Of a DNA stretch of 64,000 nucleotides, positions 6,710 to 55,315 are shown one piece after another (positions within the stretch are counted from its first letter, which is position 1; each line of letters opens with the position of its first letter). Both the position numbers and the translations under genes were made by a program. The notes below the pieces were generated by a model, which searched no databases, was not told the DNA's origin, and was given only the letters and a program-made list of their open reading frames with translations. The stretch lies in assembly GCA_030390025.1 (NCBI GenBank), contig CM059431.1, positions 123,878,001-123,942,000 on the forward strand, given 5' to 3'. Source of the DNA: Squalus acanthias. Taxonomy: Eukaryota.

Positions 6710-6720
6710 CCTCGTCGCCA
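6710..6720 (-). promoter_or_regulatory. Gypsy primer-binding site (tRNA-Ser GCT type)
   Basis: TGGCGACGAGG one nucleotide after the 5' LTR; complementary to the ...CCTCGTCG-CCA 3' end of vertebrate tRNA-Ser(GCT). Confidence 0.8.
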
Positions 6721-6721
6721 G

Positions 6722-31531: not shown

Positions 31532-33181
31532 TGTAAGGTTTATAAAATTTGCAGATCCCCAACCTAAGGAAAAAGGACTTTGGAACTACCTCAGAGTGAT
31601 AAAAATGCATTTGGGTCTAACATAAGGAATTTAAGACCAAAAACCAAGTTTTGGCATTTTAAAACTATGTCTGGGCCTGTAAAGGGACAAGGAGGTGGGT
31701 TTGACCTCTGTAAAAGCAGTTTTGGTTATTGCAGTTAATTACACTGTCTGGGGAACCGGGATAACCCTACTCACGCCCCAGCACACATTAACATTTGAAC
31801 AATAGATCCTGGGAGAAGACAGTCCCACCCAAAATAACAAGCCCCATCAAACCGATTACAGGGCCCATCAGAAAACTTGCATAATCCAAATCACTCAGGA
31901 CCATTCTTTAGAAAAGACCGAGTCTGGCCTAGAAACCCAAAACATGAAACCAATCATCAGTGATCAGCCAAGGAGATCGACAGGATGCAAACCATCCCAA
32001 AACCATTTGACACTTACAGAGCAGTTACTGGTAACAGGCCCGCCAAAAATCAGACAATGAACTGAGCAGATTTGGCGGGTAGATAAGGCCATGTTCAATT
32101 GGTGAGATTGAAGGCCTGTTAAAAAACCAGTTAACGGGCTAGTAAGTCGTTACCGATTTGCGAGCCCGCCAAAAACCAGACAATGAACTGAGTAGATTTG
32201 GCGGGTAGATAAGGCCTCTTCAATTTAGTATAATTGAAGGCCCCTCAAGCAGTTCAAGGTCGAGCAGTCAGTCGCAACCGGTGGTCATCGGAAGAAGAAG
32301 AAACCAGGAAGAAGAAAACCCGAGCTGGAAGCAAGTCGGCATCGCTCACCACTCAGACACACCTGAGTCCAGCTCGCGAAGATACCACCTCGACGGACCT
32401 CCAACAACGGTCCCAACACAGTAACCCGGAGCAACAAACCAAGAAGACATCGACGGCTCCCCAAGGTCGACTGACACATTAAACAAAGCCTAAAGCCATC
32501 GCGGAAACCAAAGGCCTCACGAAACCAACAACCGCGCATTACCCCCAACTGACCGGGTAATAGCAGGCCACCACGACCACCAACTCCAAGGAAGAAAACC
32601 TGAAGAACTGCAAAGTTTCCACACTACAAACTACTCCTGACTTACCCCTGGGTAAGATTTTCCCCAATGATTCTAAACACTACTGCTAAACCAAAGAAAT
32701 TGGGTACTCACCAGATAAATCCATAATGACATCCTACCGCATCAGTGGACTCGTGAAGACTGATCAGAGACACAGGTGAAGTCCTCTACCACGTACGGGG
32801 TACGGCAGACACTAACCGCCATAAACAGCGAACCCCAAAACCGCGATTTAGCCCAAATGTCAAAGGATTGGTGAGCATTATCCCTGGTCCTTCAAAACCC
32901 AACTTAGCTAGTAAAGTGGGGTTGGGAGGGGTGAAGTATTGTTCTACTGTCATTTCCCTCGCTTGTACCGAAGTGTTCCCCACCTTTAGAGTGTTAAGAG
33001 TGTTGTTATTTGTGTCTTACCTTTTAATAAAGATTGAAGTTCTTTCATCAAGCTCAGTTGTCTGCTGCACCTTTTTATCACAACCCCCAAATAAGTCCAA
33101 GGTCTAGAACCAAGGGAGTGGGAGTGATTCGAACCACTCAGAAGTCAGAGGTAAAGCTGACACAAACCACCACCCCCTACA
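31532..33181 (+). repeat. Outer provirus 5' LTR (1650 bp)
   Basis: Direct repeat of 49904-51554; about 17 mismatches in the first ~270 bp by eye; AATAAA at ~33025. Confidence 0.95.
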
Positions 33182-33183
33182 TA

Positions 33184-35030
33184 ATGGCGACCGTCGCAGG
33201 ACCTTGGCAAAAGGGATGTGATGCAGTGGAAACTGTTTTTGAGGAGAGAACCAAGATGGAGGAAAGGATTTCCTCCTATGTGTTCAAAAAGGTGAACATA
33301 ACTAAGAAGTGGGTACTCAGTCTGCTACGTGCTGAACGTCCAATAGACGCTGCAGCTAAGTGAACTGAGAGCAAAGACCGCAGGAAATCTGTGGAAAAGG
33401 CCATCTGGTTGATCTGCTCCCAGAAACAGATACAATTGTTGGACAAACGTGTAGAGACACTCAAAGCAGAACTGCAGGAGTCTGCTCAGCTGTCTCAAGC
33501 AAGGGCCCTAGCAGGGGAAACATTACTGAATGAGCTAACAGCCCAAGACCAGGAAAGGAGGCAGTAAGTGGAAACGCACAGGAACAGTCAAGAGTAATTT
33601 CAGTGTCAGGTCACCAAAGCAAAAACCAGTGAACTAGCGTTGAGGGAAGAGAACACCTGCCTTGCCAGGCAAGTAAAGAAACTAGAGGAGAGGTTAAGAG
33701 ATGTCCAGGCAGCTTACAAGGAAGCAAGCACAAGGGGGTATGAAGCGGGAGAGCACGGCCCCTGCTAGAAACAAATAGAAAGTTTGAACCTTGCTCTGTC
33801 CAGAGCCAAATGCATGGTATGCCTGTTAAGCCCGGGTACGGCCCGAGTGGACCTGGAAGTGCAGGGGGAAACTGTTTGAACGCCACCTGTGGCGTCGGGG
33901 ATCGACCCGGTTGGGCAGCAGGAAAGAAGGGCGATTTGTGAGGCTGGCAGGGAGTGCACACCACCACCTGTGGCGCCGGGTTTTTACTCGGTTTGGCAGC
34001 AGGCAGGGGTGGGTGAACCAATGCAGGAGAGGTCGGAGCCGGGGCCAATGTGCCCGGTCCGGCAGCAAAAGTTTGGCCCACCTGGCTGTGGTGGGGGTCA
34101 AGGACCCCTTGAAAGCCTATTCGTGGCTCCCCACTGTACCCAACAGCTTAGGGCTATGGTAAGCCACCTGAGTAAGCTCACCCAAAAAGGGGACCCCTCT
34201 GTCCACTTCATGGAAGTGGAACATGCAGCAAGCATCAATGACTGTGATGATGCCTAGATGGCCAAAATGCTCCTGTTCTCACTGGACAGCAAAATCTACC
34301 AGTCCCTCTCCGCAGAGAGTAAAAGCGGGTAGGGTGGATATGCTGCTATCAGAGAGGGAATTCTGGAGGCCATGGGTATGAACGATGGTAGTCCCTTCTC
34401 CCGAGTGGAGAAGACTACACAGCTAGCAGGGGAGACCCCACAGGCTTTTGCAGACCGACTGTGGCCTGTGTACAGGAGTGCCTGTAATGGGGTTCTCGAC
34501 CGGGCTCACCTGAATCAGGACGAGCTGGCCCACTGGCTCCAAAGTCTAGTGGCAAACAGCTTGCCACGGATCAGGGCCAAGGCTGAGCTGTGGTTTGACC
34601 CAAGGGTCCCCCGGGGCACCGAAGAGACAGTGGTCAGACAACTAACCCTGGCTTACCGAACTGGTAGGGGGACAGAAGAGCATCCACCCAAGGGGAAGGT
34701 GCATGAGATAAAACCCAGCCAGGGTAAAAAACAGTGGCACCAGGAAGGGGGTAACCCTTCCGACACGAAGTGTAATTGCTTTGGGTGCGTGAAGAGTGGG
34801 CATTGGAGGAAGGACTGTAGGAATCCATGGAAGGATAATCTAGGAAAGAATTCCCCAGCCCCTGCCCCAAAGGTATAAACCCCGACCTCTCCCCACACGT
34901 TAGACTCGGTCATAGAAGCGATTCGAGCCTTGTTAACTGGCCCAGGAGAGGTAGCCACAGCCATTGGGACAGTAACCCCATCTGCCGCACCAAACACAGA
35001 CTTATGTCTAGAGCCAGCGCAGCCTGTCTA
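33184..35030 (+). pseudogene. gag: Outer gag: N-terminal coiled coil, capsid, one CCHC knuckle
   Basis: One reading frame with 8 in-frame stops; heptad-rich LLDKRVETLKAELQE...QVKKLEERLRDVQ; MHR-like QLAGETPQAFADRLW; CFGCVKSGHWRKDC. Confidence 0.85.
33185..33202 (+). promoter_or_regulatory. Primer-binding site, tRNA-Arg(TCG)-like
   Basis: TGGCGACCGTCGCAGGAC versus TGGCGACCGCGGCAGGAC expected for vertebrate tRNA-Arg(TCG) as I recall it (16/18). Confidence 0.75.
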
Positions 35031-38000
35031 CCTGTCTACCTGTGTCCCCTGGAGTACGACGCTTGGAAGAGGCCACTTGTTAGGATGGAGGTGGAAAAGG
35101 TGAACGGGACTTATCTGTTAGATACTGGAGCTTCCAGCACCATAGTCTATTCAGAGAATCCCACAGTCTCACCTCTGTCTAACGGGGTCCGGTACAGTTT
35201 AGTGGGATTCACAGGTAACGAGCAGGCTGGCTCGTTCTCCATCCCGCTGTCCATTCATTTAGGAACACTCCACACCAAGTGGACCTGTGTCCTGATGAAA
35301 TGGGAGAAAGAGGGAACGGGGATCCTGGGGGCCGACTTTATCACAGGCCACAGAATTTTAGTGGATCTGAGGGACCACTGTCTGTGGGGAGCAGTGGGTA
35401 GAGAGAGAGTGAAGTGACAGTCATCCCAGGGAAACAGGGCAAGGGGACCTTGTGTACCCTAAAACCTAAGGAAGGTTTCGACCTCGAGCAAATGGTCAGT
35501 AACACTCCGGTCGAGTACCAGGCATTTGTGCGAGCACACCTCACAGCATTTGCCACTCACAAGCATGAATGTGGGAGGGTCAACGGGGTCGAGGTTAGTT
35601 TCAGTGGAGACCCCATGATCCGACCACAGAAGCAGTATAACTTCCCCAGGGAGGCGGAAGCAGACATGGAAGCAGCCATGGCTTCCTTAGTAAAGCAGGG
35701 GGTGCTGAGACTGATAGCCACCCATGTAAACTCCCCACTGTGGCCGGTTAGAAAACCGGACAACTCCTGGAGGGCCACAGTGGACTATCAAGTACTCAAC
35801 CGTTACATCCCCGCCTGTGCACCCACGGTGGGAGCTGTTGCTGACCTCATTGGAAGTATCCCAGCATCTGCAACCACCTTCACAGTGCTGGACATTTCCA
35901 ACGGGTTTTGGTCCATCCCTTTAAGAAGGGAGGACCAGTACAAGTTCGCCTTCACGTTTAAAGGCCAACAGTACACCTGGAACTGCCTACCCCAGGGTTT
36001 CCACAATAGCCCCAGCATTTTTCATCAATGCATGGCTAATTGTTTGAAGGGCTTCAACCGGCCCCGGCAGTTGGTACAGTATGTGGATGACCTACTCCTG
36101 TTCACCGATGAAGGAGAGGAACACGGTCCACTACTGGCTGAACTGCTGGAGCTGCTCAGACACGAAGGCTTTAAGGTAAACCCTAAGAAGGTACAGATCG
36201 GTCAACAGGAAGTAAAATTCCTAGGGCTAACTGTGCGCGCAGGGGAAAGGGCCATTGACAGAGCCAGAAGGGAAGCAGTGCAGGAGTTACCAGCCCCCAA
36301 CACAGTCACAGGGGCAAGGTTTTTTCTCGGACTGACTGGGTACTGCAGAGATTTTTTTGAGGATTATGCAGCCACAGCAGCCCCTCTGCTCCGACTCCTA
36401 CACAAGGGTGTAGAGTGGGCTTGGGACGAGGGTTGCGAGGCAGCATTTGTAAGGCTCAAAAAGGATCTGCAGACCGCACCAGCTCTAGGGGCTATTGAGG
36501 GGGAGAAAGAGTTTTTCCTGGAGGTGGCAGCCAGCGGGGACAGTCTGAGTGCTGTGCAGCTCCAAGAGAGGCACGACAGACTGAGACCAGTGTTCTACTA
36601 CTCCAGGATACTCACTAATGTGGAGAAGGGCTACTCCAACTATGAGAGGCACCTCCTCACCACTCAGTGGGCTGTGAAAAGATCATTGATCTTCACAGGC
36701 ACATGTCCCATCACCTGCTCACCCATCACACGCCCACCCAGATGCTCCTAGATGGGAGAATCAAAGATGGGACAGTGAGCAGTGCCCGCATTGCCCGCTG
36801 GACCCTACTTCTCTCCCAGATGGACCTAAGGGTAAAAGGTCTCTGCGAGCCGAGGCTCGCAGCCAATCTGATTTCCCCAGGGAACGCCCACCGGTGTTCC
36901 ATTGAAGGGGTATGGGAAGTCAACATAGGCTTTTGGGCCGGGATACACCCCACAGGCCGCAAAATCTATGTGGATGGTTCGAGTACAGTATCTGCTGGAG
37001 AACGACTCACAGGGTGTGGAGTTTATGACCCAGAGGCGGACATTGCCTTGGCCATTAAACTCCCCAGCACCATGAGCGCCCAGCAGGCTGAACTGTCTGC
37101 GGTGGTGTATGTGGTTACACACCCCGAGAAGTTCCCTACCCCATACACGATTTGCTCGGACAGCATGTTCACATGCAATTCGTGTACGGAGTACCTGGCC
37201 ATCTGGTCCCGTCGCGGATACACCTCCGCTGATGGGAGACCCCTCACCATAAAGCCCCTGTTGGAGAGAATCATGGCAGCAGTGGGGAGGAAGGGAAGGT
37301 CTTTATCCATAAGGTAAAGGCCCACTCTAAGAAAGAGCCCAAGTGGGAAAACAACCACAAGGCAGACAAGCTGGCCAAACAGTGGGCCAGAGAAGGGGTA
37401 TTCTGGGACCAGTACCAAGCGGGTCCAGTAGCAGCAGTCCGGGCAAGGGGAAGCACACAGGTGTAGCTTTGGCTCCGGAATTAAAGCAGGCCCAAACCCA
37501 GGACACAGTCCTCAAGACTGTCCTGAACAGGCTTGAAAAAGGGGAGAAAGTAGAGGGCCCGTACGGCAGAGCAGCCATCACTGTAAAGGAAGGCATGCTG
37601 TTCAGAGGGGAGCAATGGGTAGTGCCGCAGCAGCACCGAAGAGAATTCCTCCAACTGGCCCATGAGGGTCCAGGAGCGGGGCATCCCGGACATAAGACCA
37701 CCTGGCAATGGGTGGAACAGACAGGACGGTGGCCAGGACTCCAGGAAGACATTTGCGAGTTTTGTGCAGGCTGCCTAGTGTGTGCTGCTAACAACCCAGA
37801 CCCCCAGAAAAGGAAGGTGTCCATGGGACACATCAGGAGGGTAGAGGGACCATGGCAGTTGATCCAGGTCGACTACATCGGGCCCCTACCCACCGCCCAG
37901 GGAGGTTTTAAGTACTGCCTAGTCCTGGTTGATGTATTCTCAAAGTGGGTAGAAGCATTCCCATGCCGTACGGCTACTGCATTGGGTACGGCTAGGATCC

Positions 38001-39214
38001 TAGTCAGGGAAATGTTCTCATGGTGGGGACTACCACAGTATGTGGAGTCCGACCAGGGGAGTCATTTTGCTGGGCAGGTTATGCAAGAGACCCTCAGGGT
38101 GCTCGGCATAGAGGGGAAATGGCACGTCGCCCACAACCCGCATTCATTGGGTCCTGTGGAGCGTTTAAACCGTACCATTAAGGAAAGGCTACGGAAGGAA
38201 ACGGGAGACTCATCCAAAAGGTGGGTGGAACTCTTACCGTTGGTTTTAATGGGGATCCGAGCCAGCCAGTCAAAAAGCACGCCGTATTCCCCACACGAGC
38301 TCATGACTGGCAGGGTTATGCGGACCCCCACCCATGTGCTAGCCCCGGTGCTCACGGAAGGGCAGCTCAGTGAGGTGAGCCGGGACAGATTCGTCAGGAA
38401 TCTGTTGGGCCACCTTAAACAGGTCCACTGGCAGGCTGCGAGCAACATGGGAAAACAGCATCGGAGTAACCGATTGCTGCTGGAACCCCGCAGGCACCAC
38501 GAGTGGGAGGTAGGAGACCAGGTCATGGTTAGGAATTTTGCCCGGTTGGGGAGATTCGAACCACTGTACATGGGGCCCTACCACATTGTGGACAAGGCAA
38601 GCCCCATGGTCTATGCCATAAAGATGCCCCGCCGTACAAAGTGGTTTCACATCAACCAGTGTAAGCTGTTTAAACCCGAGAAAAGGGAACAGTCAGCAAA
38701 GGTGGACCACCCCAAAGTTAGAAATCCCCAGCCAGCAGCTGTGGCAGACTCACAGGCTGCAGCGGTGGGGACAGTGGCTTGTAGCACAGGAGGGTACACT
38801 CCACCGATGATGTGGGACTCAGGCACACCCCCAGTGGCCAGAGTCCTGAGAAGGTCTCCTCGCACACCACAGCCTAAACTGCCGTGGTCACCGGTACATC
38901 AGTGGGTCAGCCCAAAAGGGGCTGCAACCTGAAAAGGAGTGCCCAAGGCCAGGGAGCGTTCAAAAGTTAGGGATCCCCAGCCTGCAGCCTCAGGCTGCGA
39001 GGAACCCACAGGACAGGACAGGGACTCAGCAGCCACACCAAAGGGGGTGGTGTGCTGTAGCACAGGAGGGGACACTCCCGGGATTGTCAGGGATTCAGGG
39101 AAACCCTCAGTTGCTCTGAGAAGGACTCTCAGGGTCCTGCTGTACAGGCCACCTTACGCCCAGGCGTACAGGCTGCTCAGAAGCTGCCCAAGGCAAAGGC
39201 CATACAGGGATTGA
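35031..39214 (+). pseudogene. pol: Outer pro-pol (PR, RT, tether, RNase H, IN) with several frameshifts
   Basis: LLDTGA; LDISNGFWSIPL, LPQGFHNSP, YVDD; IYVDGS..SAQQAEL..ICSDS; HEGPGAGH..CLVC, QVDYIG, ESDQGSHF, VERLN, MGPY. Confidence 0.93.
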
Positions 39215-39837
39215 CTTGGCCGTCCAGAGACGGGCGGTGAATATACAGAGTTTTAATGTATTTTAGGTGTTTTACAGTTTGGTAGTTTTTAGGATTTGAA
39301 GGATTCTAGTTTTAAGGTTTTTAGCAAGTAAGTTCGAAGATCTTAAGAATCGATCACCTGTCCAGCCAAAGAACCTTCTCGGGACATGGCTGTCTGTTTT
39401 GTGTGTCCCTACAGAGAGGAAATCAGCATGACAAGGGTTCTGCTCCTGCTCGCCCTGGTAGGGGTGAGCATCAGTGACCGAGGTGACGTGGAGGACTCCC
39501 ACATCTATGGGTGCTCGGGAGAGAGAGCACCGGTCGTCACCGCAGGGGGTGGCGAGCGGGGAGTGGAGGAGCTCGCCATCTACTTCCACGAGGGAAGGTG
39601 GCCAGGGTGGCTGGGGTCCAACTCCACAAGATACTCCAGCCAGACCGGGCTCACGTACAGGGAGGCCTCCCTCCCATGCCCCAGAGTACAGGTCTTTGTC
39701 ACAAGGGTCAGTGTCACCAAGGGGAAGCGTGTGTGCCTTACCTGTAAGGGACAAATTCCCCATAATAGGTGGTGGTGGCTCAGGAAGCTGAGCAGGGACG
39801 CAGGGGACCATACAGCCGACTGGGAAAGATTAGGGAA

Positions 39838-40353
39838 TGAAGTAAGATATTAAAAATTGGATATAACCAGGGCAATTCGGGCATGACTCATTTGCAGAAA
39901 GCCAGGCCTTTAACGAGATTTGTTTCAAGTCACACAACACCTTACAAGCTTTCGGAGTCTACCTCCTTCAACGAGATTTACAGATAGCATTGTATGTAAC
40001 TTTTACAGCCACCCTCGGATAACGAGATCCCCATAAGGCGAGACAGAAATGTTTGCTAACCAAGTAACTTTTAAACCTAATTGGATCTCTGTAAAGGCAA
40101 GACAGAAATATTTGTAAAACGAGTAATGTGTTTTTAGACCTAGCATTGTGTGTAACTTTTAAACCTGATTGGATATAAATATGTGTGTTTTCATTAGCTC
40201 GGTGGAGTTGTACTCATGTAAGCGACATGAGAGGTTCTCCCCAGGCCTGTAATAAACCGTTGTGACTTCAATTACTTGGTCAGTCTTTCTTCCAACAAGC
40301 CAGTAGCGTCGACCTTGTATATCACTGGGTCCGCACTTTGGGAGCTTACATCA
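39838..40353 (+). repeat. Inner provirus 5' LTR
   Basis: Termini TGAAGTAAG...CTTACATCA; TATAAAT 40174; AATAAA 40251. Confidence 0.97.
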
Positions 40354-40355
40354 AT

Positions 40356-40373
40356 TGGCGACGAGGATGGGAT
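40356..40373 (+). promoter_or_regulatory. Primer-binding site, tRNA-Ser(GCT)
   Basis: TGGCGACGAGGATGGGAT is the 18-nt complement of the ATCCCATCCTCGTCG-CCA 3' end. Confidence 0.88.
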
Positions 40374-40604
40374 GCGCGATCTGAACAAAACTCTCGGACA
40401 GCGATAACCTAAGACGGGTGAGTACGTTTAAATTACCACCTGTAAAATTAGAGGTTAATCGCTGGCGAGACGTTAAGTAAGATTGACGTACAAAAGAACT
40501 ATAAAAAGAAAGACACCTTTAATTGAAGGCGGTTAACACTGCCGGACTGCGGTACCGGAAAACAAGGGTTTAGAAACCTGATAGGCCCACGAGGTGCGGC
40601 TCTT

Positions 40605-41040
40605 AAGTAGTAGTTAAAACGGGGAGTTTTAACACGGTGGAGGACGAGTCCTTCTGGCCGAAAAGTAAACTTAGGTAGTAGTTAAAACGGGGAGTTTTAA
40701 CACGGTGGAGGACGAGTCCTTCTGGCCGAAAAGTAAACTTAGGTAGTAGTTAAAACGGGGAGTTTTAACACGGTGGAGGACGAGTCCTTCTGGCCGAAAA
40801 GTAAACTTAAGTAGGAGTTAAAACGGGGAGTTTTAACACGGTGGAGGACGAGTCCTTCTGGCCGAAAAGTAAACTTAAGTAGGAGTTAAAACGGGGAGTT
40901 TTAACACGGTGGAGGACGAGTCCTTCTGGCCGAAAAGTAAACTTAAGTAGTAGTTAAAACGGGGAGTTTTAACACGGTGGAGGGCGAGTCCTTCTGGCCG
41001 AAAAGTAAACTTAGGTAGTAGTTAAAACGGGGAGTTTTTA
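40605..41040 (+). repeat. 68-bp tandem repeat (6 full units plus a partial seventh) in the provirus leader
   Basis: Units start at 40605, 40673, 40741, 40809, 40877, 40945 and 41013; a diverged extra copy lies at ~41093-41155. Confidence 0.97.
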
Positions 41041-41181
41041 AAATAAACAAACAAGGGTTTAGAAACCCGGTAGGCCCACGAGGTGCGGCTCTTAAGAAGT
41101 AGTTAAACAGGTTGTTTTAACACTGGGTGAAGGACAAGTCCTTCTGGCCGAAAAAGAAATAAATAAATAAATAAATAAACT

Positions 41182-42730
41182 ATGGCTAGCAAAGAGGATA
41201 AGGAACCCTGGGGAGACCCAGAGTCTGTAACACGATATGTTTACGACAAGAATAAAAAATTAATTGAGAAAATGAGAAAGGCAGGGTGGAACCAGGACGA
41301 TAAACCAGACACACAAAGGGACTGGTGGAGGAAACAAACCAAAAATAAATTGGAGAAAGCGTGCATTATCGTAGCGGCACGATACGATCGGGAACGTATG
41401 CTCCAGCGCGGAGCCCTTAAAACATATCCAGCAGCTGCAGCCAACCCAAAACCGGGTAACTCCCAGGAAAGGTTATACCTGGAGCTGCCCCAGGGGGGGC
41501 CGACTGGCTGTCCTCCCCCATATACAGGACACCAGTCGGCAGCCCCGGAGCCTGTTCCGATGGCACCAGTGACACTGCAATATAGGCCAGCAATCCCCGC
41601 GGTTCCGGAAATTCCGGCGGCAGGGGGGAATCCGGCCGTCCCGGCAGTACCGGGCAGGCCGGCCACCACAACGTTGACCTACACACCGTTAAGCCTGCAG
41701 GATCGGGTGATTCTCCTCAATGAATTACCAGCCTTAAAACACCGCCAGAATAATCAGACATTCTGGCACAAACTGCGCGAAGTACGCATAAACCATGCCC
41801 TACATAGTATAGATATCGATCAATTGGTACGAGCTAAATGTCCCGAGGAACAGTGGAGATTAGTGCAGGGCAACCACGGAAATGGCCAGTGGGCCACAAA
41901 TACAGGACAGACAATCCAACAATTAAACACTGAGTTCGACCAATTCAAGGCCGCTGTGGAAGCAGCAATGGGACAGGCCCCCGTAAATTGGGCAGCTATA
42001 AGCGGAATCACACAAAAAAAAGGGAGAAAGCGCTATCGATTATGGAAAACGAAAGTGGTCCGCCTTTGAGGGTAACTGTGGGATCCCAGGCCCCTTAAAC
42101 AAAAACAACGCTTGTTTTCTGCAAACATTTAAACAGGGACTAAGTCCAATGCACCAGAATGCAATAAAAATGGGGCTAGTGGTCCACCATAATTGGGAGG
42201 ACTTAATACAGTGGGCGTGCGAAGTAGATAATCAGGTCCAAGAACAAGCCAAACCTAAAATAGCTGCCCTAAGGACGGATAGCGACAATGAGGATGCATT
42301 AAGTGTGGCGGCATGCTTCGGTTGCGGACAGGAGGGCCACATGAAAAGGGATTGCCCGAGGCAACAGAACAAAGGGGATAATCAGACATCTCAGCAAAAG
42401 GCTTCCTGTCATAATTGTGGAAAACCAGGGCATAGGAAACAACAATGTTGGAATAAAGGAGGAGGAAGGGAAGGTCAGGGACCTAGACAGGGAGGAAAAC
42501 CGGGGTCAAGTATTGGAAGGTCAGAGAATAACGAGGAAAGCATGGCGAAACTGATCAGGAAGGGAATGCAAGACTGGGAGGATGACAGAGAAAGAGAAGA
42601 AAGGAAGAGGAGAAAGAGTAGGAAGTATAAGAGAGATGATTCCTCAGACACCTCCGACGAGGAAGACATAGTGGAGCTGACAAGGAAAATGGAAAAACTG
42701 GTCAAACAGATAAAAAAAGGCAACGCCTGA
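41182..42730 (+). CDS. gag: Inner gag with a single +1 lesion in an A8 run at 42014-42021
   Basis: PPPY late domain; removing one A restores MHR QKKGESAIDYGKRKW; two CCHC knuckles CFGCGQEGHMKRDC and CHNCGKPGHRKQQC. Confidence 0.88.
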
Positions 42731-45700
42731 AAGGTAGCGGCCCTCGGAGACCCGGTAAAGGGAGACCCTAGAATGTTTATTGAGGCACTGGTAGGGGGCC
42801 GACAGTGCAGAATGCTCATAGACACCGGGGCAGCAATATCTCTAACAAACGTACCCTTGCCGCGAACCAAGGAAAATATTTTTATATCTGGGATAGGGGG
42901 AGTAAAAATTAAAGCATGGAAAAGTGAGACAGTATTACTAGAATTGGGAAAAATCATTATACCTACATGTTTCTGGATCTGTGAGAATACTGAGGGAACC
43001 ATCCTGGGTATAGACATACTAAGGGAAGTGGGAGTTTTAATAGACCCCAAACAGGATAAGTTGCTATGGCCCGATAACCACAAGGAAGGGAGACATAACT
43101 CAAAGGGATCCAAGACAGCATGTGCCATCAGCGCTATCCAAATAATAGACCCCAAATGGGACGAAAAGGGAGGGTGGGGGGCAATTTGCCACCGATTCCC
43201 CGAACTATGGGCCAAACACAAGCAGGACTGCGGACTGGTTAAGATGAACCCAGTCAGAGTCCCCGGGCCAACCCACCGACCCCATAAACAATATCCCCTA
43301 AAAGTGGAGGCCCAGACAGCCGTACGGAGTATAGTATTGGAACTCGTGAAACAGGGAATTCTGCGAGAAACAGTGTCCGGCACTAACTCTCCAGTATGGC
43401 CCGTAAAGAAACCTGATGCGTCATATCGACTTACAATCGATTACACAGCCTTAAATAAAGTGACCCCAAAGGAATATCCAATTGTAGCAAGCCCAGCTAC
43501 TATCTTTAACGGTTTAAAACCAGAACACAAAATATTCACCGTGTTAGACATCGCAAACGGGTTCTGGTCCATTCCCCTGCATGAGGAATCACAGGAAAAG
43601 TTCGCCTTTACAATAGGCGGCAAACAGTATACATGGACACGGGTCCCACAAGGATTCCATAACAGTCCAGCCATTTTTCACCGCCACATGGCCAGAGCTC
43701 TTGAAGACCTAGACTTAGAGGGTGAAAATAGTACCCTCTTACAATACGTGGATGACCTCCTAATAGCGTCAGAAATGAAAGTGGGACATAAGGGGGCCCT
43801 GGTAAAGGTCTTTTCAACCCTACGGGAGGCGGGTTTTAAAGCAAACCCAGCCAAAGCCCAGGTAGGAAAATTGGAAGTCACATACCTCGGGTATAGGGTC
43901 AGTATGGGAAAAAGGGCTATGCCAGAGGAAAGGAAGGAGGCAATCAGCCAAATGCCAAGGCCCATAAACGTGAGAGGAGTACGACAGGTACTCGGTCTCT
44001 TTAACTTTAGCCGGAACTTTATAGAAGGCTTCTCACACATGGCCGCGCCTCTGTATGAATTAACAAAGGGGGGTAGGGCAGCAGGAGAACCCATCGGGTG
44101 GACATCCACTCAGGAAGAAGCATTTACCAAACTTAAACAAGCCCTGACCGCCGCCCCCGCGTTAGGATTACCTGATCAAGAGAGACCCTATCACATATTC
44201 TGTCACAATCATGATGGACACTATAGCGCCGTAGTAGCCCAGGAGCACGGAGGAAACATGAGATCGGTGGCCTACTATTCCACTAGACGATCCCCCATCG
44301 TGGCAGGTATGCCCCGCTGCGTGGCCGCTATAGACTGTGCCAGATGGTCAGTACAGGTCAGTGAACCGATTATAATGACCGGAGATATTGTACTACACAC
44401 CCAGCACACCCTGGTAGAATTACTTAATACGGGACGACTGAAGTCTGTCTCAAATGCTCGACGAGCAGCCTGGGAGGCGGTACTATTACCCAAAGACAAG
44501 TCAATACAGATAGTCAGGGATATGGGGCAGAACCCAGCCTCCATGATGATCATGGAAGGAGAGGACCACCAATGCATGAATGAGGAAGAGCCAGAAAATG
44601 ACCTAGACAAAATAAAAGAAATACCCTTGGCCGAAGCGGACTTGGAGTTATATGTAGATGGATCCCGAAAATATGTACAGGGAAAGCCGAGGACAGGCTG
44701 GGCGGTGGTAAATGGGGAAGGGATGGTGTTACAAGCCGGAACTCTCCCAGGGGATAAATCTGCCCAGGTCGCAGAACTAACAGCCTTAACGGAAGCCCTG
44801 AAACTGGCTATGGGAAAAAGGGTTAATGTATATACCGACAGCCGCTACGCCTTCGGAATAGTACATGATTATATGGCCGCATGGAGTAGGAGGGGGTACA
44901 TCACCTCTGGGGGAGCCCCCATCCAACACCTGGACGTAGTAAAGTCCTTGGTGAATGCCGCGCGCGGACCAACGGAGTTAGCAGTAATAAAGGTTAAAGC
45001 GCACACCAAAGGAAAAACTCCACAAGAACAAGGTAACAGAGCGGCAGACCTGGCCGCCAAGGTTATGACGGAGGCGCCCTGTGGCAATGTAACACCGATA
45101 GGGGGAGCCCCAGTCCCATTAATACCCCTTGAGTATAATATTGTTAAGTTACATCAAGGCATACCAGAACCTGAGCTGAACATTTGGGAAAAGAAGGGAG
45201 TAATGCTATCCAGAGATAAGGTCTGGAGGAAGGAGGGACGGGTCTGTGCACCGGAGTGTATCCAACAGGAACTAATGAGGTTGTATCACGGACAAGCCCA
45301 TACAGGGGCCAGCCGAATGATAAATAACATAGGCCAATGCTGGTGGTGGCCCGGACTATCAAGCAGTATAAGGAAGTATTGTAAGGATTGCCACATTTGT
45401 GCGCAATGTAACACCGGAAAACCAGTAAAGGTAAAATGGGGTAGACAGCCAAGACCCAAGGGACCCTGGGAGAAACTACAAATAGACTTTACAGGACCAT
45501 TAACCAAAAGCAAAGGAAAAACCTACTGTCTGGTAATAATTGACCAATTCACAAGGTGGGTGGAAGCTTTTGCCACCCGAAACTGTACCGCCAGTACAGT
45601 GGCCCGGATCTTGGCAGAAGAAATAATACCCCGGTGGGGAGTCCCATTACAAATAGATTCAGATAAGGGAACACACTTTACCGGAAAGGTAATGAAAGAG

Positions 45701-46294
45701 GCTTGCGCCCTGTTGGGCGTAAAGCAGAAATTTCATATACCTTACCATCCCGAAAGTTCAGGAATGGTGGAACGAATGAATCGGACCTTAAAACGATCTC
45801 TCACAAAGGCCATTGTGGAGACGGGGCAGGGATGGGCGGAACTGTTACCCACAATCCTAATGAGACTAAGGGCCACACCAAATAGCACCACCGGACTGAC
45901 CCCTTTTGAATTAATGACGGGACGGGCAATGGCGCTTCCCGAAGGAGTAGTGACCGGAGGGGAAGATGTGGGACCTTTAAAGGACAGAATCAGAAGGTTC
46001 ATAAAGCAATTATGTGCGGAACTGCACGGGCTGAGACAGGAGGCTAGAGACCAGCAGATAATCAAGGATCTGGAGAGGGATACCGAGGAACAAAAGAAAG
46101 TCATACCTGGGGTGGGAAGTCAGGTAATGTCTAGAATAATTCCAATAAAACCTGGGTTACGGCCCCGGTGGGAAGGACCCTATTTGGTATTAATGACCAG
46201 CGACACTTGTGCATGCATAGACCTGCACGGCACTGGAAAGGGAAGATGGAAACACTGGACACAATTAAAATTATACAAAGAAGCTGATGAATAA
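42731..46294 (+). CDS. pol: Inner pro-pol (PR-RT-tether-RNase H-IN), uninterrupted and in frame with gag
   Basis: 1173-aa ORF: LIDTGA, LDIANGFWSIPL, PQGFHNSP, YVDD, LYVDGS/AELTAL/YTDSRY, HHCC, D-D-E, WEGPY. Confidence 0.97.
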   Translation, partial: KVAALGDPVKGDPRMFIEALVGGRQCRMLIDTGAAISLTNVPLPRTKENIFISGIGGVKIKAWKSETVLLELGKIIIPTCFWICENTEGTILGIDILREVGVLIDPKQDKLLWPDNHKEGRHNSKGSKTACAISAIQIIDPKWDEKGGWGAICHRFPELWAKHKQDCGLVKMNPVRVPGPTHRPHKQYPLKVEAQTAVRSIVLELVKQGILRETVSGTNSPVWPVKKPDASYRLTIDYTALNKVTPKEYPIVASPATIFNGLKPEHKIFTVLDIANGFWSIPLHEESQEKFAFTIGGKQYTWTRVPQGFHNSPAIFHRHMARALEDLDLEGENSTLLQYVDDLLIASEMKVGHKGALVKVFSTLREAGFKANPAKAQVGKLEVTYLGYRVSMGKRAMPEERKEAISQMPRPINVRGVRQVLGLFNFSRNFIEGFSHMAAPLYELTKGGRAAGEPIGWTSTQEEAFTKLKQALTAAPALGLPDQERPYHIFCHNHDGHYSAVVAQEHGGNMRSVAYYSTRRSPIVAGMPRCVAAIDCARWSVQVSEPIIMTGDIVLHTQHTLVELLNTGRLKSVSNARRAAWEAVLLPKDKSIQIVRDMGQNPASMMIMEGEDHQCMNEEEPENDLDKIKEIPLAEADLELYVDGSRKYVQGKPRTGWAVVNGEGMVLQAGTLPGDKSAQVAELTALTEALKLAMGKRVNVYTDSRYAFGIVHDYMAAWSRRGYITSGGAPIQHLDVVKSLVNAARGPTELAVIKVKAHTKGKTPQEQGNRAADLAAKVMTEAPCGNVTPIGGAPVPLIPLEYNIVKLHQGIPEPELNIWEKKGVMLSRDKVWRKEGRVCAPECIQQELMRLYHGQAHTGASRMINNIGQCWWWPGLSSSIRKYCKDCHICAQCNTGKPVKVKWGRQPRPKGPWEKLQIDFTGPLTKSKGKTYCLVIIDQFTRWVEAFATRNCTASTVARILAEEIIPRWGVPLQIDSDKGTHFTGKVMKEACALLGVKQKFHIPYHPESSGMVERMNRTLKRSLTKAIVETGQGWAELLPTILMRLRATPNSTTGLTPFELMTGRAMALPEGVVTGGEDVGPLKDRIRRFIKQLCAELHGLRQEARDQQIIKDLERDTEEQKKVIPGVGSQVMSRIIPIKPGLRPRWEGPYLVLMTSDTCACIDLHGTGKGRWKHWTQLKLYKEADE

Positions 46295-47159
46295 CCCAGA
46301 AATCATATTGTACAAGGAAAGCAAGGATTATTTGCATAGGGTCCAAAGGGACAGGACATCCTTGTATTCGCGTTAATATGATCCTGTTGCATTATGATAG
46401 TAACATTCTTCGTGGTCTGTATGTTTCAATAGATCTGGGAGACTGGCAAAGTAGTAAGAATGGAATAACTAACTGCTGGTGACGACCAGCCTTGTATTTC
46501 CACAGGACAAATTAGAAGAACGACGGAAGAAGGGACGGCTGACAAAAAGGAAGATAATCAAGTATCTGCTTATATATGGCCTATATAACACCGGAAATGA
46601 TATTTTGGTGATTGGGGGTCAGGATGGTCGGGGACGTTGGGCGCCTCAGTGGTGCAAAGCATAATGATATTCCTCGTGATTGTTATTACAATATACTGTG
46701 TATTCTTGCTGCTCAAAGATTAGGTAAAGCCATGATGGTGTAAGACCCGATCTATAGCCCTAAAATTACAAGGGATGAATTGGACATGGTAATTAATAAC
46801 CAGGCCGGCCAACCGTAAGACGGGAGTGGCAGAAACAGGATTGGTGAGTGATGACAGTCTCGAAAGGACACGTCACGCACCCACCGAGGGAATGGAGGAC
46901 GAGCTCGAACCAGAAGCCCAAACCATTGATGCAGGGCTCTTGGGCCCCGGGGATGGCAACATAGAACCAAGACAAGAAAATAATAAGTCCACATATACCG
47001 CGTGGGGTGAAACCGGCTTATAAATTGGTTTATGTCATACCCATGTATAACCTAGACTGGTAGAAGGCCAGAGAGTGCACGCTCAGGCAGACACCAGGCA
47101 ATAGGAATACATGTTGACCTGTATTGGAACAGTTGTCCAATAGGTCAAAAGGGGGGAAT

Positions 47160-47675
47160 TGAAGTAAGATATTAAAAATTGGATATAACCAGGGCAATTC
47201 GGGCATGACTCATTTGCAGAAAGCCAGGCCTTTAACGAGATTTGTTTCAAGTCACACAACACCTTACAAGCTTTCGGAGTCTACCTCCTTCAACGAGATT
47301 TACAGATAGCATTGTATGTAACTTTTACAGCCACCCTCGGATAACGAGATCCCCATAAGGCGAGACAGAAATGTTTGCTAACCAAGTAACTTTTAAACCT
47401 AATTGGATCTCTGTAAAGGCAAGACAGAAATATTTGTAAAACGAGTAATGTGTTTTTAGACCTAGCATTGTGTGTAACTTTTAAACCTGATTGGATATAA
47501 ATATGTGTGTTTTCATTAGCTCGGTGGAGTTGTACTCATGTAAGCGACATGAGAGGTTCTCCCCAGGCCTGTAATAAACCGTTGTGACTTCAATTACTTG
47601 GTCAGTCTTTCTTCCAACAAGCCAGTAGCGTCGACCTTGTATATCACTGGGTCCGCACTTTGGGAGCTTACATCA
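47160..47675 (+). repeat. Inner provirus 3' LTR
   Basis: Identical by eye to 39838-40353; preceded by the PPT. Confidence 0.97.
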
Positions 47676-49903
47676 GGGAACGACACCTACCAGACAATCA
47701 CAGGGACCCAAGGGGGAGTGAGTGTGTGTTGGGGTAAGTGGTGGGAACCGGAACAGGGAGTCTATGTCTGTATGTGGGGATCAGAGAAAGCCTGCCCCAC
47801 AGGCATATCCATCATCTTCTCCATACAATGGCAAGATGCCGGGGAGGGGATGGGGTGGGATTCTAGCCTACATGCGTGCGCGCTCCCACACTCCCCGACC
47901 CCAGTCAACGCCCCCGAACTAGTAGCCCGCCCCCGAAAGCCCCTGCCCACGACCACGACCTCACGGACAGTAGAAGAGAGGTGTCCTACCACCACCAAGG
48001 GACCAGAAAATGGACTAGTACTAGTACCGACCGAAAAGGTACTCTACCAGGGGGTACACTATGCAGTAGCTTCAGTAATATTAAACCTTACCGAGGTACA
48101 CTTATCTAAATGGTGTCCTAAGGAGACAAAACAGCTATACCAGGCCCTGTTAAAGGAAATGTTTAGAAAATTCTATGAATTCGACTTTAACAACGTGGAC
48201 AAAGCAGAACTGTACAGATTACACCCAGAGCGCACCATGGGCACAGGGAGACAAAGAAGGGGGACCTGGAACGATATTTTCACAACCTATAATGCAGGAT
48301 CCTCAGTAATAAATAGCCAAGATGACATAGAGCTACAAACACAGATAAATGGTCTAAAAACCCAGTTGAGGAAGATCCTAATGGACGGGAACACAGTGGT
48401 AGGCTCAGAGCTACACGAGGACCAAGCTATGACGGTCCATCTAAAAGAGATTATTGCTGAGCTAGAGAGACATGCAAAAACAGTGAATGCACTCATACGA
48501 GAGGACAGGAGTAATTCGGATCAGGCTGCACAGAATGAGGTGTGTGTGCTATACGGGGCATGGTTGCTGGGCGAGGGCCGCAGCAACCTGGAGGATTTAA
48601 AACAAGGTTTAGTCCCCTCCTGGATTAGCAAAAAACACCTCGCAGCCCTCCACCCGTTCAGCAATTCACTGAGCCCGTGTCAGCTCCACCTAGCCTCTGA
48701 AGCCTACCCAGTCCCAGTAGATTGTGGACGTTCCAATCACTCTATCATGGGGATAGTAGTGAGGATGCCAGTCATGGGTGGGACAGCCCGACCCGCACCG
48801 GTATACAGGGTGGAGAACATTGGGATCATTCAAGGGGGTGCACACGTCCATTTCGCAGAGGTCCCACCTTATGTCATAAAGTGGGAGCACGCTATGACAG
48901 GTACTGACAGGTGCCGGAGCCGGGGTTCACACATAATACTGTGTCCCCAGCACTTGTACGCCTACTCCAGATCACAGTGCGGGTTTAAAGCTGCTGGCGC
49001 ACGACCCATCAACTGTACCATGGAGGTAATGGCACAAGGCCATGTTCCCCCACAGGTAGCATTCATAGGGGGTGGGACATATTGTGTCACCACAAGTGCG
49101 CCCCACTACCAGCATGGACAACATTTTTGGTGTCCGGTAAGTGACAGCAGTTTCTGCTTTAAACCCAAGGCAGAAGTTCAAGTGGCCTAGGAATGGATTG
49201 TCCCCATTCCTGAACCCTCAACTGTTCACCTCACTGTAAGGGAAAACATTACCAACCTGCAAAACGATGTCACCTTCTTTGGCTATAAGATTCCTCCTCT
49301 GCCTGAACACCTTACCGTCTTACTAAAAGCTGTGCAGCTTTCACCAAAGCATTTCTACACCCTAGAGCAAAAGACACTCGAGATAGGGGCTGAGATTTCG
49401 GCCATCACGGTTCCAACCTGGTGGGACATTTTTGAAAATATAGAGGTTCCTTCCTGGATTAGGATGGCCTCCCACATCTTAGTGGTTTGCCAGCTCGGGA
49501 TAGTCTTGTACTTACTGTGTACAAAGTGCAAGGGGAAGGACAGAATGCTCCATTCCCGGCCTGAGAAAGCCTGGGAAAAACATTACAATAATGTTTACCA
49601 AGTGTAAAACAAGCCTGAATCGATTCTAAAAATAAAGAAGTTTTGTGATTGTGTGTTATTTACTTTCCATGTATGTATTTTGTTTTTTTCCAAGTGGTGC
49701 AGGGGTGTTGGATCCCTCCGTGCTTGGATGTATATGTATTATTGATTCTTACCTGTATGTATTGGAACACTACACTAAAAAAAGGGGAATGTATGTTTTT
49801 GGGTTTTAGTTCAGGTAATACAGGGGAAGGTTGGCTTTCGAGGATCAGGGATTTTGTCCACCCAGGATGATACTGTAGTGACTTAAAGTATCGCAGGAGG
49901 GAC

Positions 49904-51554
49904 TGGAAGGTTTCCAAAATTTGCAGCACCCCAACCTAAGGAAAAAGGACTTTGGAACTACCTCAGAGTGATAAAATTGCATTTGGGCCTAACCTAAGGA
50001 ATATAAGACCAAAAACCAAATTTTGGCATTTTAAAACTATATCTGGGCCTGTAAAGGGACAAGGAGGTGGGTTCGACCACTGTAAAAGCAGTTTTGGTTA
50101 TTGCAGTTAATTGCACTGTCTGGGGAACCGGGATGACCCTACTCAAGCCCCAGCAGACATTAACATTTGAACAATAGACCCTGGGAGAAGACAGTCCCAC
50201 CCAAAGACAGGCCCCATCAAAACCCGATTACAGGGCCCATCAGAAACATACATATTAAAACCCACTCAGGACCATTCTATAGAAAGACCGAGTCCGGCCT
50301 AGAAACCCAAAACACGAAACCAATCACCAGTGATCAGCCAAGGAGATCGACAGGATGCAAACCATCCCAAAACCCATTTGACACTTACAGAGCAGTTACT
50401 GGTAACAGGCCCGCCAAAATTCAGACAATGAACTGAACAGATTTGGCGGGTAGATGAGGCCATGTTCAATGGGTGAGATTGAAGGCCTGTTAAAAACCCA
50501 GTTAACGCGCTAGTAAGTCGTTACCGATTTACGAGCCCGCCAAAAACCAGACAATGAACTGAGTAGATTTGGCGGGTAGATAAGGCCACTTCAATTTAGT
50601 ATAATTGAAGGCCCATCAATCAGTTCAAGGCAGTTAGTCGCAACTGGTGGTCATCAGAAGAAGAAGAAACCAGGAAGAAGAAAACCCGAGCTGGAAGCGA
50701 GTCGGCATCGCTCACCACTCAGACACACCTGAGTCCAGCTCGTGAAGATACCACCTCGACGGACCTCCAACAACGGTCCCAACAAAGTCACCCGGAGCAA
50801 CAAACCAAGAAGACATCGACGGCTCCACAAGGTCGACCGACACATTAAACAAGGCCTAAAGCCATCGTGGAAACCAAAGGCCTCACGAAACCAACAACCA
50901 CGCATTACCCCCAACTGACCGGGTAATAGCAGGCCACCGCGACCAACAAAGACCAACTCCAGGGAAGAAAACCCGAAGAACTGGAAAGTTTCCACACTAC
51001 AAACTACTCCTGACTTACCCCTGGGTAAGATTTTCCCTAAAGACTCTAAGCCCTACTGCTCAACTAAAGAAATTGGGTACTCACCAGATAAATCCAAAAC
51101 AACATCCTACCGCATCAGCGGACTCGCGAAGACTGACCAGAGACTCAGGTGAAGTCCTCTACCGCGTATGGGGTACGGCAGACACTAACCGCCATAAACA
51201 GCGAACCCCAAAACCGCGATTTAGCCCAACTGTTAAAGGATTGGTGAGCATTATCCCTGGTCCTTCAAAACCTAACTTAGCTAGTAAAGTGGGGTTGGGA
51301 GGGGTGAAGTATTGTTCTACTGTCATTTCCCTCGCTTGTACTGAAGTGTTCCCCACCTTTAGAGTGTTAAGAGTGTTATTATTTGTGTCTTACCTTTTAA
51401 TAAAGATTGAAGTTCTTTCATCAAACTCAGTTGTCTGCTGCACCTTTTTATCACAACCCCCAAATAAGTCCAAGGTCTAGAACCAAGGAAGTGGGAGCGA
51501 TTCGAACCGCTCAAAAGTCAAAGGTAAAGCTGACACAAACCACCACCCCCTACA
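49904..51554 (+). repeat. Outer provirus 3' LTR (1651 bp)
   Basis: Preceded by purine tract aggaggga; ends ccccctaca followed by TSD gtgg. Confidence 0.95.
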
Positions 51555-51675
51555 GTGGCAGCTGAAATTTAACGCAGAAAAGTGCGAAGTGATACATTTT
51601 GACATGAAGAACGAGGAGAGGTAATATAAACTAAAGGGTACAATTCTAAATTGGGTGCATGAACAGAGAGACCTA

Positions 51676-52568
51676 GGGGTAGAAATTAGGTCGCGCCCCA
51701 TTTGGGGCGCAAATATCGTCCGGACGCAAATATTAGCGCCTGGCGCTAATTATCGGCACTGACGGGAAACTTCACTTTTACCGCCCCGGGAGGTGAGTGG
51801 AGCGCTAAAGCAGGCGCTGCACACCTCTCTTAAGGCGCAAAGGCCGAGCAGTGAGGCGCTAACTCGGAGCGCTGGCGAAGCTCATGTAATGTCAGTCAGC
51901 AATGGAACACACACACAATGGCACGGGCCAGTTCTTAAAGGGGATGGTTAATCTTGCTTTCCATCCACATCCTGTTCATTGCTGCCTTGAATCTCGGCCT
52001 GGAGAGACTTGCACATCAAATGTGCTGGAAAGAACAATGGAGAGCACCAGGCAAAGAGCTCAGAGTGCAGCTCCCACGGTCTCTGCTAAATCGATACAAG
52101 GAATGGCAAATCAAAATGAACCTGCAAAGTGCTGCTCAGTACCCAAAACTCCTTCACACAACGTTGAATCTCTCCAGAAGTCTCTCCCTCTCTCTCTCAG
52201 AATGCGTAGTTCAAAAATGCCACCAACAATAAAAGACAGGAAGAGGCCCCCTTTAAATAGCGCCCCCCCCAGCCCCACAGCGATTGATAGCGTTCCAGTC
52301 TTCTGGTCGTTGGAAGCGCCAGGCGGTAAGGCAGGGGGTGCCACTCAATTTCCGCTACGGGGCGCCCCAAGGGCGTTGCACCATGGAATGACGTCACAAT
52401 CTGCGCGCGCAGGTGGTCGCAGCGGTAAGTTTTAGCGCCGCCGCACAATCTCAAGTTAAGTTCTCGAGCGGCGCAAACATCGCTGCGCCCGGGCGTTAGC
52501 GGCTTTGCGCCCCATTAGCGCCCTCTTAAGGCGCTAACGGGTGGCGCAACCAAGTGAATTTTTACCCC
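51676..52568 (-). mobile_element. 893-bp Harbinger MITE, copy 1
   Basis: TIRs ggggtagaaatt / aatttttacccc; TSD cta; reverse orientation relative to copies 2 and 3. Confidence 0.9.
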
Positions 52569-52734
52569 CTAGGGTTATATGTGCACAATTCATTGAAGGT
52601 GGCAGGGCAGGTTGATCAAGCGGTTAAAAAAGCTTATGGGATCCTGAGCTTCATGAATAGCGGTATAGAGTACAAAAGCTTGGAAATTATGATGAACCTG
52701 TATAAAACACTGGTTCAGCCTAAACTGGAGTATT

Positions 52735-55022: not shown

Positions 55023-55315
55023 AGTGGTTAGCACTGTTGCCTCACAGCGCCAGGGACCCGGGTTCGAATCCGGCCCCGGGTGACTGTCTGTGTGGAGTTT
55101 GCACATTCTCCCCGTGTCTGCGTAGGTTTCCTCCGGGTGCTCCGGTTTCCTCCCACAGGCCAAAGATGTGCGGGTTAGGTTGATTTGGCTATGATAAATT
55201 GACCCTTAGTGTTAGGGGGACTAAATACGTGGGGTTACGGGGATAGGGTGGGCTTTGTGTCGGTGCAGGCTCGATGGGCCGAAATGGCCTCTATCTGCAC
55301 TGTGGGGATTCTGTG
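55023..55315 (+). mobile_element. HE1-like V-SINE
   Basis: tRNA head with B box ggttcgaatcc, V-domain tgtgtggagtttgcacattctccccgtgtctgcg...ggtttcctccgggtgctccggtttcctccca and CR1-like tail. Confidence 0.85.

Follow-up and report, generated by a model that had tools for sequence, protein, structure and literature searches.

A shark endogenous retrovirus env gene, split by a younger provirus, encodes a predicted F-type fusion protein with a probable immunoglobulin-like head

Results

The split env gene and its proposed product

The window analyzed here, a 64,000-nucleotide stretch of the shark Squalus acanthias genome (GCA_030390025.1, contig CM059431.1, positions 123,878,001 to 123,942,000), contains an endogenous retrovirus (ERV) whose envelope gene, env, is interrupted by a second provirus. 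On balance, we favor the reading that this is an old, dead copy of a gene whose intact sisters encode a type I glycoprotein of about 795 residues, in which a probable immunoglobulin (Ig)-like, receptor-binding head is carried on a self-sufficient F-type fusion machine. From its N terminus, the predicted polypeptide would consist of a signal peptide and a head of about 220 residues, then a linker of about 45 residues rich in Pro and Thr, an F2-like part, the cleavage site RQRR, an F1-like part with the heptad-repeat helices HRA and HRB, a transmembrane (TM) segment and a short tail. Cleavage by furin would yield a surface subunit, made up of the head and the F2-like piece, that stays attached to the F1-like membrane subunit. 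The head would bind the cell receptor in cis, a role that belongs to a separate attachment protein in paramyxoviruses, and would set which cells can be entered. Since the provirus has a single envelope gene, located 3' of pol, receptor binding must sit in the env polypeptide, and since the head and linker are the only part outside the F fold, we infer from this gene content that the head is the receptor-binding module.

The env N piece encodes 135 residues (39428-39832) and terminates with ADWERL, while the C piece opens at 47676 with GNDTY and contains an internal TAG at 49188-49190. Together they amount to 135 and 642 sense codons plus the internal stop, or about 778 codons. The two pieces were never artificially joined. 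Instead, natural uninterrupted copies from the same genome were used, and residue numbering follows the closest of these sister open reading frames (ORFs), P0002. A six-frame search of the 3.7-Gb genome with the env N piece returned 5,315 first-look candidates. All 150 candidates that were scored matched at E≤8.1e-76 with 85-100% identity; 12 of them lie in open frames of at least 799 aa, and each of these 12 yields an ATG-to-stop ORF of 790-808 aa. Every one of the 12 crosses the junction without interruption (ADWERLGNDT(Y/H)RT), and when the two window pieces are aligned to them, one begins exactly where the other ends, with neither gap nor overlap. Compared with P0002, the window pieces show 92.6% and 93.8% identity and a single gap of two residues. 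The outer retrovirus family is thus very abundant in this genome, where its copies number in the thousands and no fewer than 12 env genes are open.

A preliminary description of this stretch, made from the sequence alone, had proposed a nested insertion with a GGGAA duplication and an in-frame junction, and had suggested looking for uninterrupted copies; the sequence, the long terminal repeat (LTR) alignment and the 12 sister ORFs all bear out this reconstruction. As it had also stated, the insertion bisects the Ig-like stretch: the break falls between codons L149 and G150, that is between predicted strands C and E. Because of this break, the Ig-like domain is invisible to ORF-level annotation in the window. 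No Pfam family matched the window env pieces at E≤0.01. The window env is inactive, with a provirus inside its Ig-like stretch and one internal stop; the outer provirus also has a broken gag and a broken pol.

The fusion half has a predicted paramyxovirus F fold

We modeled P0002 with AlphaFold2 from a 40-row alignment. The mean pLDDT of the whole-ORF model is 55, with values of 70-95 over residues 250-320 and 430-660. A Foldseek search of the PDB with this model gave 230 matches at E≤0.001, and every row listed is an F protein of a paramyxovirus or pneumovirus. The best is F from human parainfluenza virus 3 (hPIV3; 1ztm, E 8.3e-11, probability 1.00), and further F matches, all with probability 1.00, include respiratory syncytial virus (RSV), Langya virus, Newcastle disease virus (NDV), parainfluenza virus 5 (PIV5), Nipah virus, Hendra virus and human metapneumovirus. 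In the BFVD database of predicted viral structures, the best matches are arlivirus, lispivirus and other mononegavirus glycoproteins, baculovirus F (Ld130), two walleye retrovirus Env proteins and paramyxovirus F0. These two Env proteins, from the epsilonretroviruses walleye epidermal hyperplasia virus (E 1.5e-9) and walleye dermal sarcoma virus (E 1.2e-7), are in their predicted structures significant neighbors of the F-type model. Language-model neighbors of Env fall in the Gypsy, Baculo_F and Fusion_gly families at 0.93-0.94, which we take as a lead only.

P0002 has one signal segment, a hydrophobic stretch at residues 12-31, and one TM segment at about residues 746-770. It contains a single R-x-[KR]-R site, RQRR at 341-344, directly before the fusion-peptide region, and predicted helices at 347-458 and 695-726. 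The furin site, the heptad-repeat helices, the Cys-containing region and the TM helix of the preliminary description are therefore all present in sequence and model, and its F-type fusion module is borne out by the structural matches. Profile and sequence searches weigh on the other side. PF00523 (Fusion_gly) and PF12259 (Baculo_F) were unmatched at E≤10 in three sister ORFs, a PDB sequence search with a sister ORF gave a chance match at E 1 only, and one with a profile of the whole Env gave nothing beyond chance matches to coiled coils or TM-like segments, the best at E 0.11. A distant relative, P0037, matches Baculo_F at E 0.0011, under the cut-off. The structural comparison of the model nevertheless confirms, at the level of predicted fold, that the fusion half adopts the paramyxovirus/pneumovirus F fold.

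A gamma-type Env was also considered as the identity of this protein and rejected: the C-x6-CC motif (CX6CC) is found nowhere in P0002, and the membrane-subunit fold is F-type.

The head is probably immunoglobulin-like

The head contains eight cysteines, and its core spans about residues 95-200. Within this core, C120, W130/W131 and V166-x-W168-x-x-W171-x-x-x-E175-x-G177-x-Y179-x-C181 form an Ig motif. As described previously, 60 residues separate C120 from C181. The canonical E-F strand pattern is matched position by position. C120 belongs with C117 to the VCLTC sequence, the WWW run (129-131) follows 9-11 residues past C120, and C167, which lies in SVCW, might pair with C117 as the preliminary description suggested. 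A C-x-x-C motif is conserved in the Ig-like B strand (P0002 117-120; window 39734-39745), as CLTC here and as CLVC or CLSC in relatives.

As a control, the motif C-x(9-16)-W-x(30-60)-[DEQ]-x-G-x-Y-x-C was sought in shuffled sequences. It occurred in 139 of 200,000 shuffled heads (residues 31-250), in 4 of 200,000 when the hydrophobic B-strand pattern was added, and in 45 of 50,000 shuffles of the whole ectodomain; because the motif was defined after seeing the sequence, these frequencies are hints and not P values. Ig_3 is the sole Pfam family matched in the head. It was found in three sister ORFs (E 0.04, 0.0028 and 0.1), where residues 99-181 align to profile positions 2-74 of 78, and it recurs in 10 of 22 rows at E≤1 (E 0.0027-0.58). 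An independent fragment from another source, 56% identical, matches it at E 0.0085.

A head-only model (P0002 residues 31-330, 22 alignment rows) places strands in the order expected of an Ig domain, A, B, C, E, F, G, and reaches pLDDT 48-72 across residues 111-180. Foldseek of the head returned weak rows that are mostly antibody, T-cell receptor, CD8 or PD-1 V domains (best E 0.024); for several of them, the title gives only the partner of the antibody complex. In the VIA structure comparison, all 50 rows shown are Ig-type, the library being limited to a single chain for each 40% cluster, and all have Z below 8.

Several results argue against an Ig-like head. All Ig_3 scores lie at 13.5-18.6 bits, under the curated cut-off of 30. 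The head-only model has a mean pLDDT of 42.5 with no residue at 90 or above, and the head reaches only 23-56 in the whole-ORF model. Foldseek of the head gave no match at E≤0.001, and the head profile found nothing at E≤10 among PDB sequences. Language-model neighbors of the head score 0.81-0.83, a range also reached by chance, even though every named neighbor is Ig-type. The head could instead be a distinct type of Cys- and Trp-rich β domain; the Ig motif and the weak Ig_3 matches would then be coincidental, and AlphaFold, given a shallow alignment, would have defaulted to the commonest β sandwich. The sub-threshold scores, the low-confidence model, the low Z values and the lack of a PDB sequence match would all be expected in that case, and eight cysteines, including C117-L-T-C120, together with runs of Trp are unusual in a plain Ig domain. 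We consider such a domain rather unlikely, given the rarity of the correctly spaced full motif among shuffled heads, the recurrence of Ig_3 and of no other family, and the uniformly Ig-type VIA rows. We conclude that the head core probably has an Ig-like fold. The Ig-like domain of the preliminary description is thus moderately supported by its motif and by the recurrent Ig_3 match, and weakened by profile scores under threshold and a model of low confidence. The mucin-like stalk that was proposed to carry it is instead a Pro/Thr-rich linker, which has low pLDDT and the highest dN/dS of env.

Conservation and selection

Conservation was assessed over 31 locus rows that represent 29 distinct places (L005 is the same as L021, and L014 as L022). 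C117, C120, W130 and W131 are kept in all 31 rows, and among the 29 rows that cover the positions concerned, C167 is kept in 28, Y179 in 27 and C181 in 27. Skate and other elasmobranch sequences, at 56-64% identity, retain the same hallmark residues. Sister copies lacking these residues had been named beforehand as evidence that would speak against an Ig domain, and their retention is what we found.

The C-x-x-C itself is kept in all covering sequences except P0023, which has CLTF. In gamma-type Env, a CXXC controls the labile bond to the membrane subunit, and C117-x-x-C120 might accordingly be a thiol-exchange motif of the kind found in the gamma-type surface subunit (SU), in which case its reading as an Ig B-strand Cys would be wrong. 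Its near-universal conservation fits this proposal. We regard it as very improbable, since the partner CX6CC is absent, the fusion subunit is F-type and not gamma-type, and C120 falls at the B-strand Cys position of the Ig_3 profile.

Over the 12 open ORFs (66 pairs pooled, the ORFs being chosen for openness and the pairs non-independent), dN/dS is 0.34 both in the Ig-like stretch and in the part before it, 0.47 in the linker, 0.23 in the F2-like part and 0.25 in the F1-like part. The synonymous divergence between the window subfamily (L021) and the other 11 ORFs (set L021-L032) is 0.10-0.17 in the head and 0.35 in the F2- and F1-like parts. This difference suggests either that heads have been exchanged or homogenized among subfamilies by recombination, or that the head is under nucleotide-level constraint.

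Relatives and origin of the head

Where the encoded proteins have named relatives, these belong to sharks, a sawshark and a skate. We performed an exhaustive HMMER search with the whole ORF against 1.84 billion representatives, and all 46 matches at E≤0.001 are to Env sequence. Nine of them span the head (P0005, P0006, P0011, P0013, P0018, P0022, P0023, P0031 and P0048), and each is either a copy of Env or a gene model in which part of Env is fused to a host gene. No cellular Ig-superfamily protein was matched through the head at this threshold. A word-indexed search of the head among shorter proteins gave four matches, all ERV copies, and a single-protein scan of IMG/VR viral contigs found no relative. 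A captured host Ig domain, as put forward in the preliminary description, is therefore unsupported, there being no cellular donor among these matches.

In one alternative, the head is a recently captured host Ig-superfamily domain that would act mainly as an immune decoy or modulator and not as a receptor binder. Large DNA viruses carry host-derived Ig-like decoys, and the motif seen here is of the V/I-set type that is typical of cellular Ig-superfamily domains. We hold this to be very unlikely, however: every head-spanning match is Env or chimeric, the head is already present in the elasmobranch copies at 56-64% identity, including those of skate, and the provirus has no other receptor-binding candidate. 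From its presence in these copies it also follows that any capture of the head was old.

Five full-length distant relatives are matched only from about query residue 237, with 20-31% identity. They come from the sharks Chiloscyllium (P0015) and Mustelus (P0016), the frogs Pelodytes (P0025) and Mantella (P0045), and a Logan assembly (P0038). The F2-like part is the first stretch common to the distant Env relatives. Pairwise, hhalign links one frog head to the other (99.1%) and the P0016 head to that of P0026 (99.7%). The latter two look Cys-rich and have no Ig match, which also favors the alternative of a non-Ig head. Ig hints are found in other heads: the UniRef name of P0015 is 'Ig-like domain-containing protein', and P0038 matches V-set at E 0.045. 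A further point against our reading is that hhalign gives a probability of only 0.2-1.4% between the head studied here and those of six distant relatives. Profile similarity thus gives no support to a common Ig-like ancestor of the heads.

Since the F core is common to distant relatives while heads differ by lineage, the head looks like an exchangeable module, and unlike heads on a shared F core would fit a receptor-binding module that can be swapped. It is possible, if doubtful, that the head is a true Ig-superfamily domain taken from a vertebrate host long ago, and that shark and frog lineages have since swapped heads, either Ig-like or Cys-rich, on the conserved F core.

Some database entries among the relatives (P0006, P0007, P0008 and P0037, from sawshark and horn shark) are chimeric models in which Env fragments are joined to zinc-finger, Niban-like, cadherin-related and F-box proteins. 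These chimeric 'host' proteins are probably annotation artefacts caused by ERV copies in or beside genes.

Comparison with known systems

The shark ERV Env shares the F2/F1 fold with paramyxovirus and pneumovirus F proteins (hPIV3 1ztm, RSV 3rki, Langya 8tve, NDV 3maw, PIV5 2b9b, Nipah 5evm); about 450-530 columns align, with E from 8e-11 to 1e-6. Both have a single furin-type site before the fusion-peptide region, a long HRA, a β-rich core, an HRB and a TM segment. The two differ in sequence, with 10-15% identity and no PF00523 match, and in the additional head and linker of about 250 residues that precede the F2-like part in the shark protein. The latter is moreover encoded by a retrovirus and, in contrast to paramyxovirus F, has no separate attachment protein beside it.

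Among retroviruses, Env of the lokiretroviruses is described in the text of Wang and Han 2020 (PMC7947760) as of the paramyxovirus F kind, with a signal peptide, a basic cleavage site, a fusion peptide, a coiled coil and a TM segment. By this description, lokiretroviruses resemble the outer provirus in their F-like env, in a dual RNase H (tether and RNase H, here RT_RNaseH_2 and RNase_H) and in amphibian hosts, which also occur among the relatives of the shark ERV Env; they differ in that their Env matches PF00523 (E 2.2e-7), while the shark ERV Env has no such match. The words 'cartilaginous', 'shark', 'Chondrichthyes' and 'elasmobranch' are absent from that main text. The term 'immunoglobulin' does not occur in a follow-up paper on the Odin retrotransposon (PMC9040795), nor do Ig terms in a 2026 structural review.

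F-type Env of Ty3/gypsy errantiviruses and baculovirus F (Ld130) use one polypeptide for attachment and fusion, as is proposed for the shark ERV Env, and baculovirus F proteins are structural neighbors of the latter at E 9e-12 to 4e-7. Errantiviruses are invertebrate elements, and no homologous intact ERVs in vertebrates are reported in the text of a recent preprint (bioRxiv 10.1101/2023.10.26.564294), in which 'Immunoglobulin' and 'Ig-like' do not appear.

A further parallel is the shark protein P0015 from Chiloscyllium punctatum (GCC29952.1; UniRef A0A401SHR0), which shares the F2/F1 core with 27% identity over query residues 239-768. Its database name, an automatic label, points to an Ig-like domain before this core. 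The P0015 head has no profile similarity to that of the shark ERV Env (1.4%) and no Pfam Ig match at E≤1.

The receptor-binding domain of gammaretroviral SU is an Ig-like β sandwich with variable loops, followed by a Pro-rich linker. The shark ERV Env is alike in its putative N-terminal β sandwich and its Pro-rich linker within the surface subunit, while its fusion subunit is F-type without CX6CC. No sequence or structure match to this gammaretroviral domain is found among the head matches listed.

In the literature searched, vertebrate retroviral F-like env genes are described solely as fusion machines, and cell attachment is not addressed. Full-text searches returned no account of an F-like retroviral Env that bears an Ig-like head, nor of an F-like env from an ERV of cartilaginous fish; for lokiretrovirus together with shark, they returned only a paper that names both separately. 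The shark ERV family and its shark, skate and frog relatives thus form a natural set in which one F core carries differing N-terminal heads. This family makes two questions testable: the requirements of an F-type fusogen that has no attachment protein as a partner, and the way in which receptor-binding modules of retroviruses are swapped. Should old capture from a host and later swapping prove true, the set would be a natural series of a paramyxovirus-like fusogen that gains and exchanges a built-in receptor-binding domain and would thereby shift its host-cell range with no separate attachment protein.

The two nested proviruses

The features of both proviruses are listed in Table 1. The outer provirus is the older, dead copy. 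Its LTRs are identical at 1557 of 1641 aligned bases (94.9%, local alignment), end in TG...CA and are flanked on both sides by the 4-bp sequence GTGG. Two frames of its gag region (33830-34162 and 34333-34878) gave no Pfam match at E≤0.001. Against the PDB, its reverse transcriptase (RT) is about equally close to those of the murine leukemia virus (MLV) type (E 1.6e-50) and of foamy virus (E 2.8e-50), with that of the human immunodeficiency virus farther. These distances fit a deep lineage without placing the provirus. An epsilon- or gamma-like identity was rejected for it, as its RT is far less MLV-like than that of the inner provirus.

The inner provirus is much younger than the outer one, as its LTRs show no mismatch and its pro-pol is open, and it appears to be very recent. 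Its pol is nearest to the RT-RNase H of MLV/xenotropic MLV-related virus (E 4.7e-117) and to the integrase of prototype foamy virus (PFV), so that an MLV-like RT is joined to a PFV-like integrase match. An env frame is lacking: 46295-47159 contains no frame longer than 99 aa. In the inner leader between the 5' LTR and gag, a 68-bp unit is present in about nine head-to-tail copies (40534-41145).

Table 1. Features of the nested proviruses and of the split env gene (positions in the 64,000-nucleotide window).
Feature	Position	Strand	Basis
Outer provirus, 5' LTR	31532..33181	+	Local alignment with 49904-51554
Outer provirus, leader and degenerate gag region	33182..34838	+	Short open frames only, 110-181 aa
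Outer provirus, pol, split into four open frames	34839..38932	+	Pfam matches
Outer protease frame	34839-35417	+	Pfam RVP
Outer RT frame	35402-36751	+	Pfam RVT_1 plus RT_RNaseH_2
Outer RNase H frame	36646-37317	+	Pfam RNase_H
Outer integrase frame	37331-38932	+	Pfam rve plus Integrase_H2C2
env start (ATG 39386 or 39428), signal peptide, pre-Ig part with C43 and C98	39386..39667	+	Translations, sister alignment
Ig-like stretch, N half, predicted strands A-C, to WERL	39668..39832	+	Translation, Ig_3 match, strands in both models
VCLTC	39731-39745	+	Ig-like N half
WWW	39770-39778	+	Ig-like N half
Target-site duplication GGGAA, left copy (original env bases)	39833..39837	+	Sequence
Inner provirus, 7.8 kb	39838..47675	+	Sequence, LTR alignment, Pfam
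Inner provirus LTRs, 516 bp each	39838-40353 and 47160-47675	+	0 mismatches in aligned stretch, TG...CA
Inner gag	41179-42730	+	Pfam zf-CCHC (zinc knuckles)
Inner pro-pol, open, 1187 aa	42731-46294	+	Pfam RVP, RVT_1, RNase_H, rve
Target-site duplication GGGAA, right copy	47676-47680	+	Sequence
Ig-like stretch, C half, predicted strands E-G	47676..47828	+	Translation, head-model strands
SVCW	47721-47732	+	Ig-like C half
GVYVC	47757-47771	+	Ig-like C half
ISIIFS	47805-47822	+	Ig-like C half
Pro/Thr-rich linker with C217 and PLPTTTTS	47829..47975	+	pLDDT 23-39 in both models
F2-like part, from ERCPTTTKGP; two predicted strands and a helix	47976..48260	+	pLDDT 81-90 (P0002 250-320)
Furin-type site RQRR	48249-48260	+	End of F2-like part
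F1-like ectodomain: fusion-peptide region, HRA helix, β-rich Cys core, HRB helix; two residues shorter than in closest sister ORF	48261..49454	+	Foldseek
TM helix (49455-49520), short cytoplasmic tail, TAA 49605-49607	49455..49607	+	Translation
Outer provirus, 3' LTR	49904..51554	+	LTR alignment

Other features of the window

Rfam and tRNA scans of the window gave no match. Another LTR retroelement lies at 2410-7923 on the minus strand, with one frame of 863 aa for RT/RNase H/integrase and another of 519 aa that has a weak PNMA (Gag-like) match. Transposon remains include a DDE_Tnp_4 (Harbinger-type) transposase fragment at 14479-15123 (+). The endonuclease fragment of a non-LTR element is located at 27641-28318 (+), and a weak Myb/SANT-like match at 60749-61525 (-). 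Finally, long inverted and direct repeats are present at 51667-56821.

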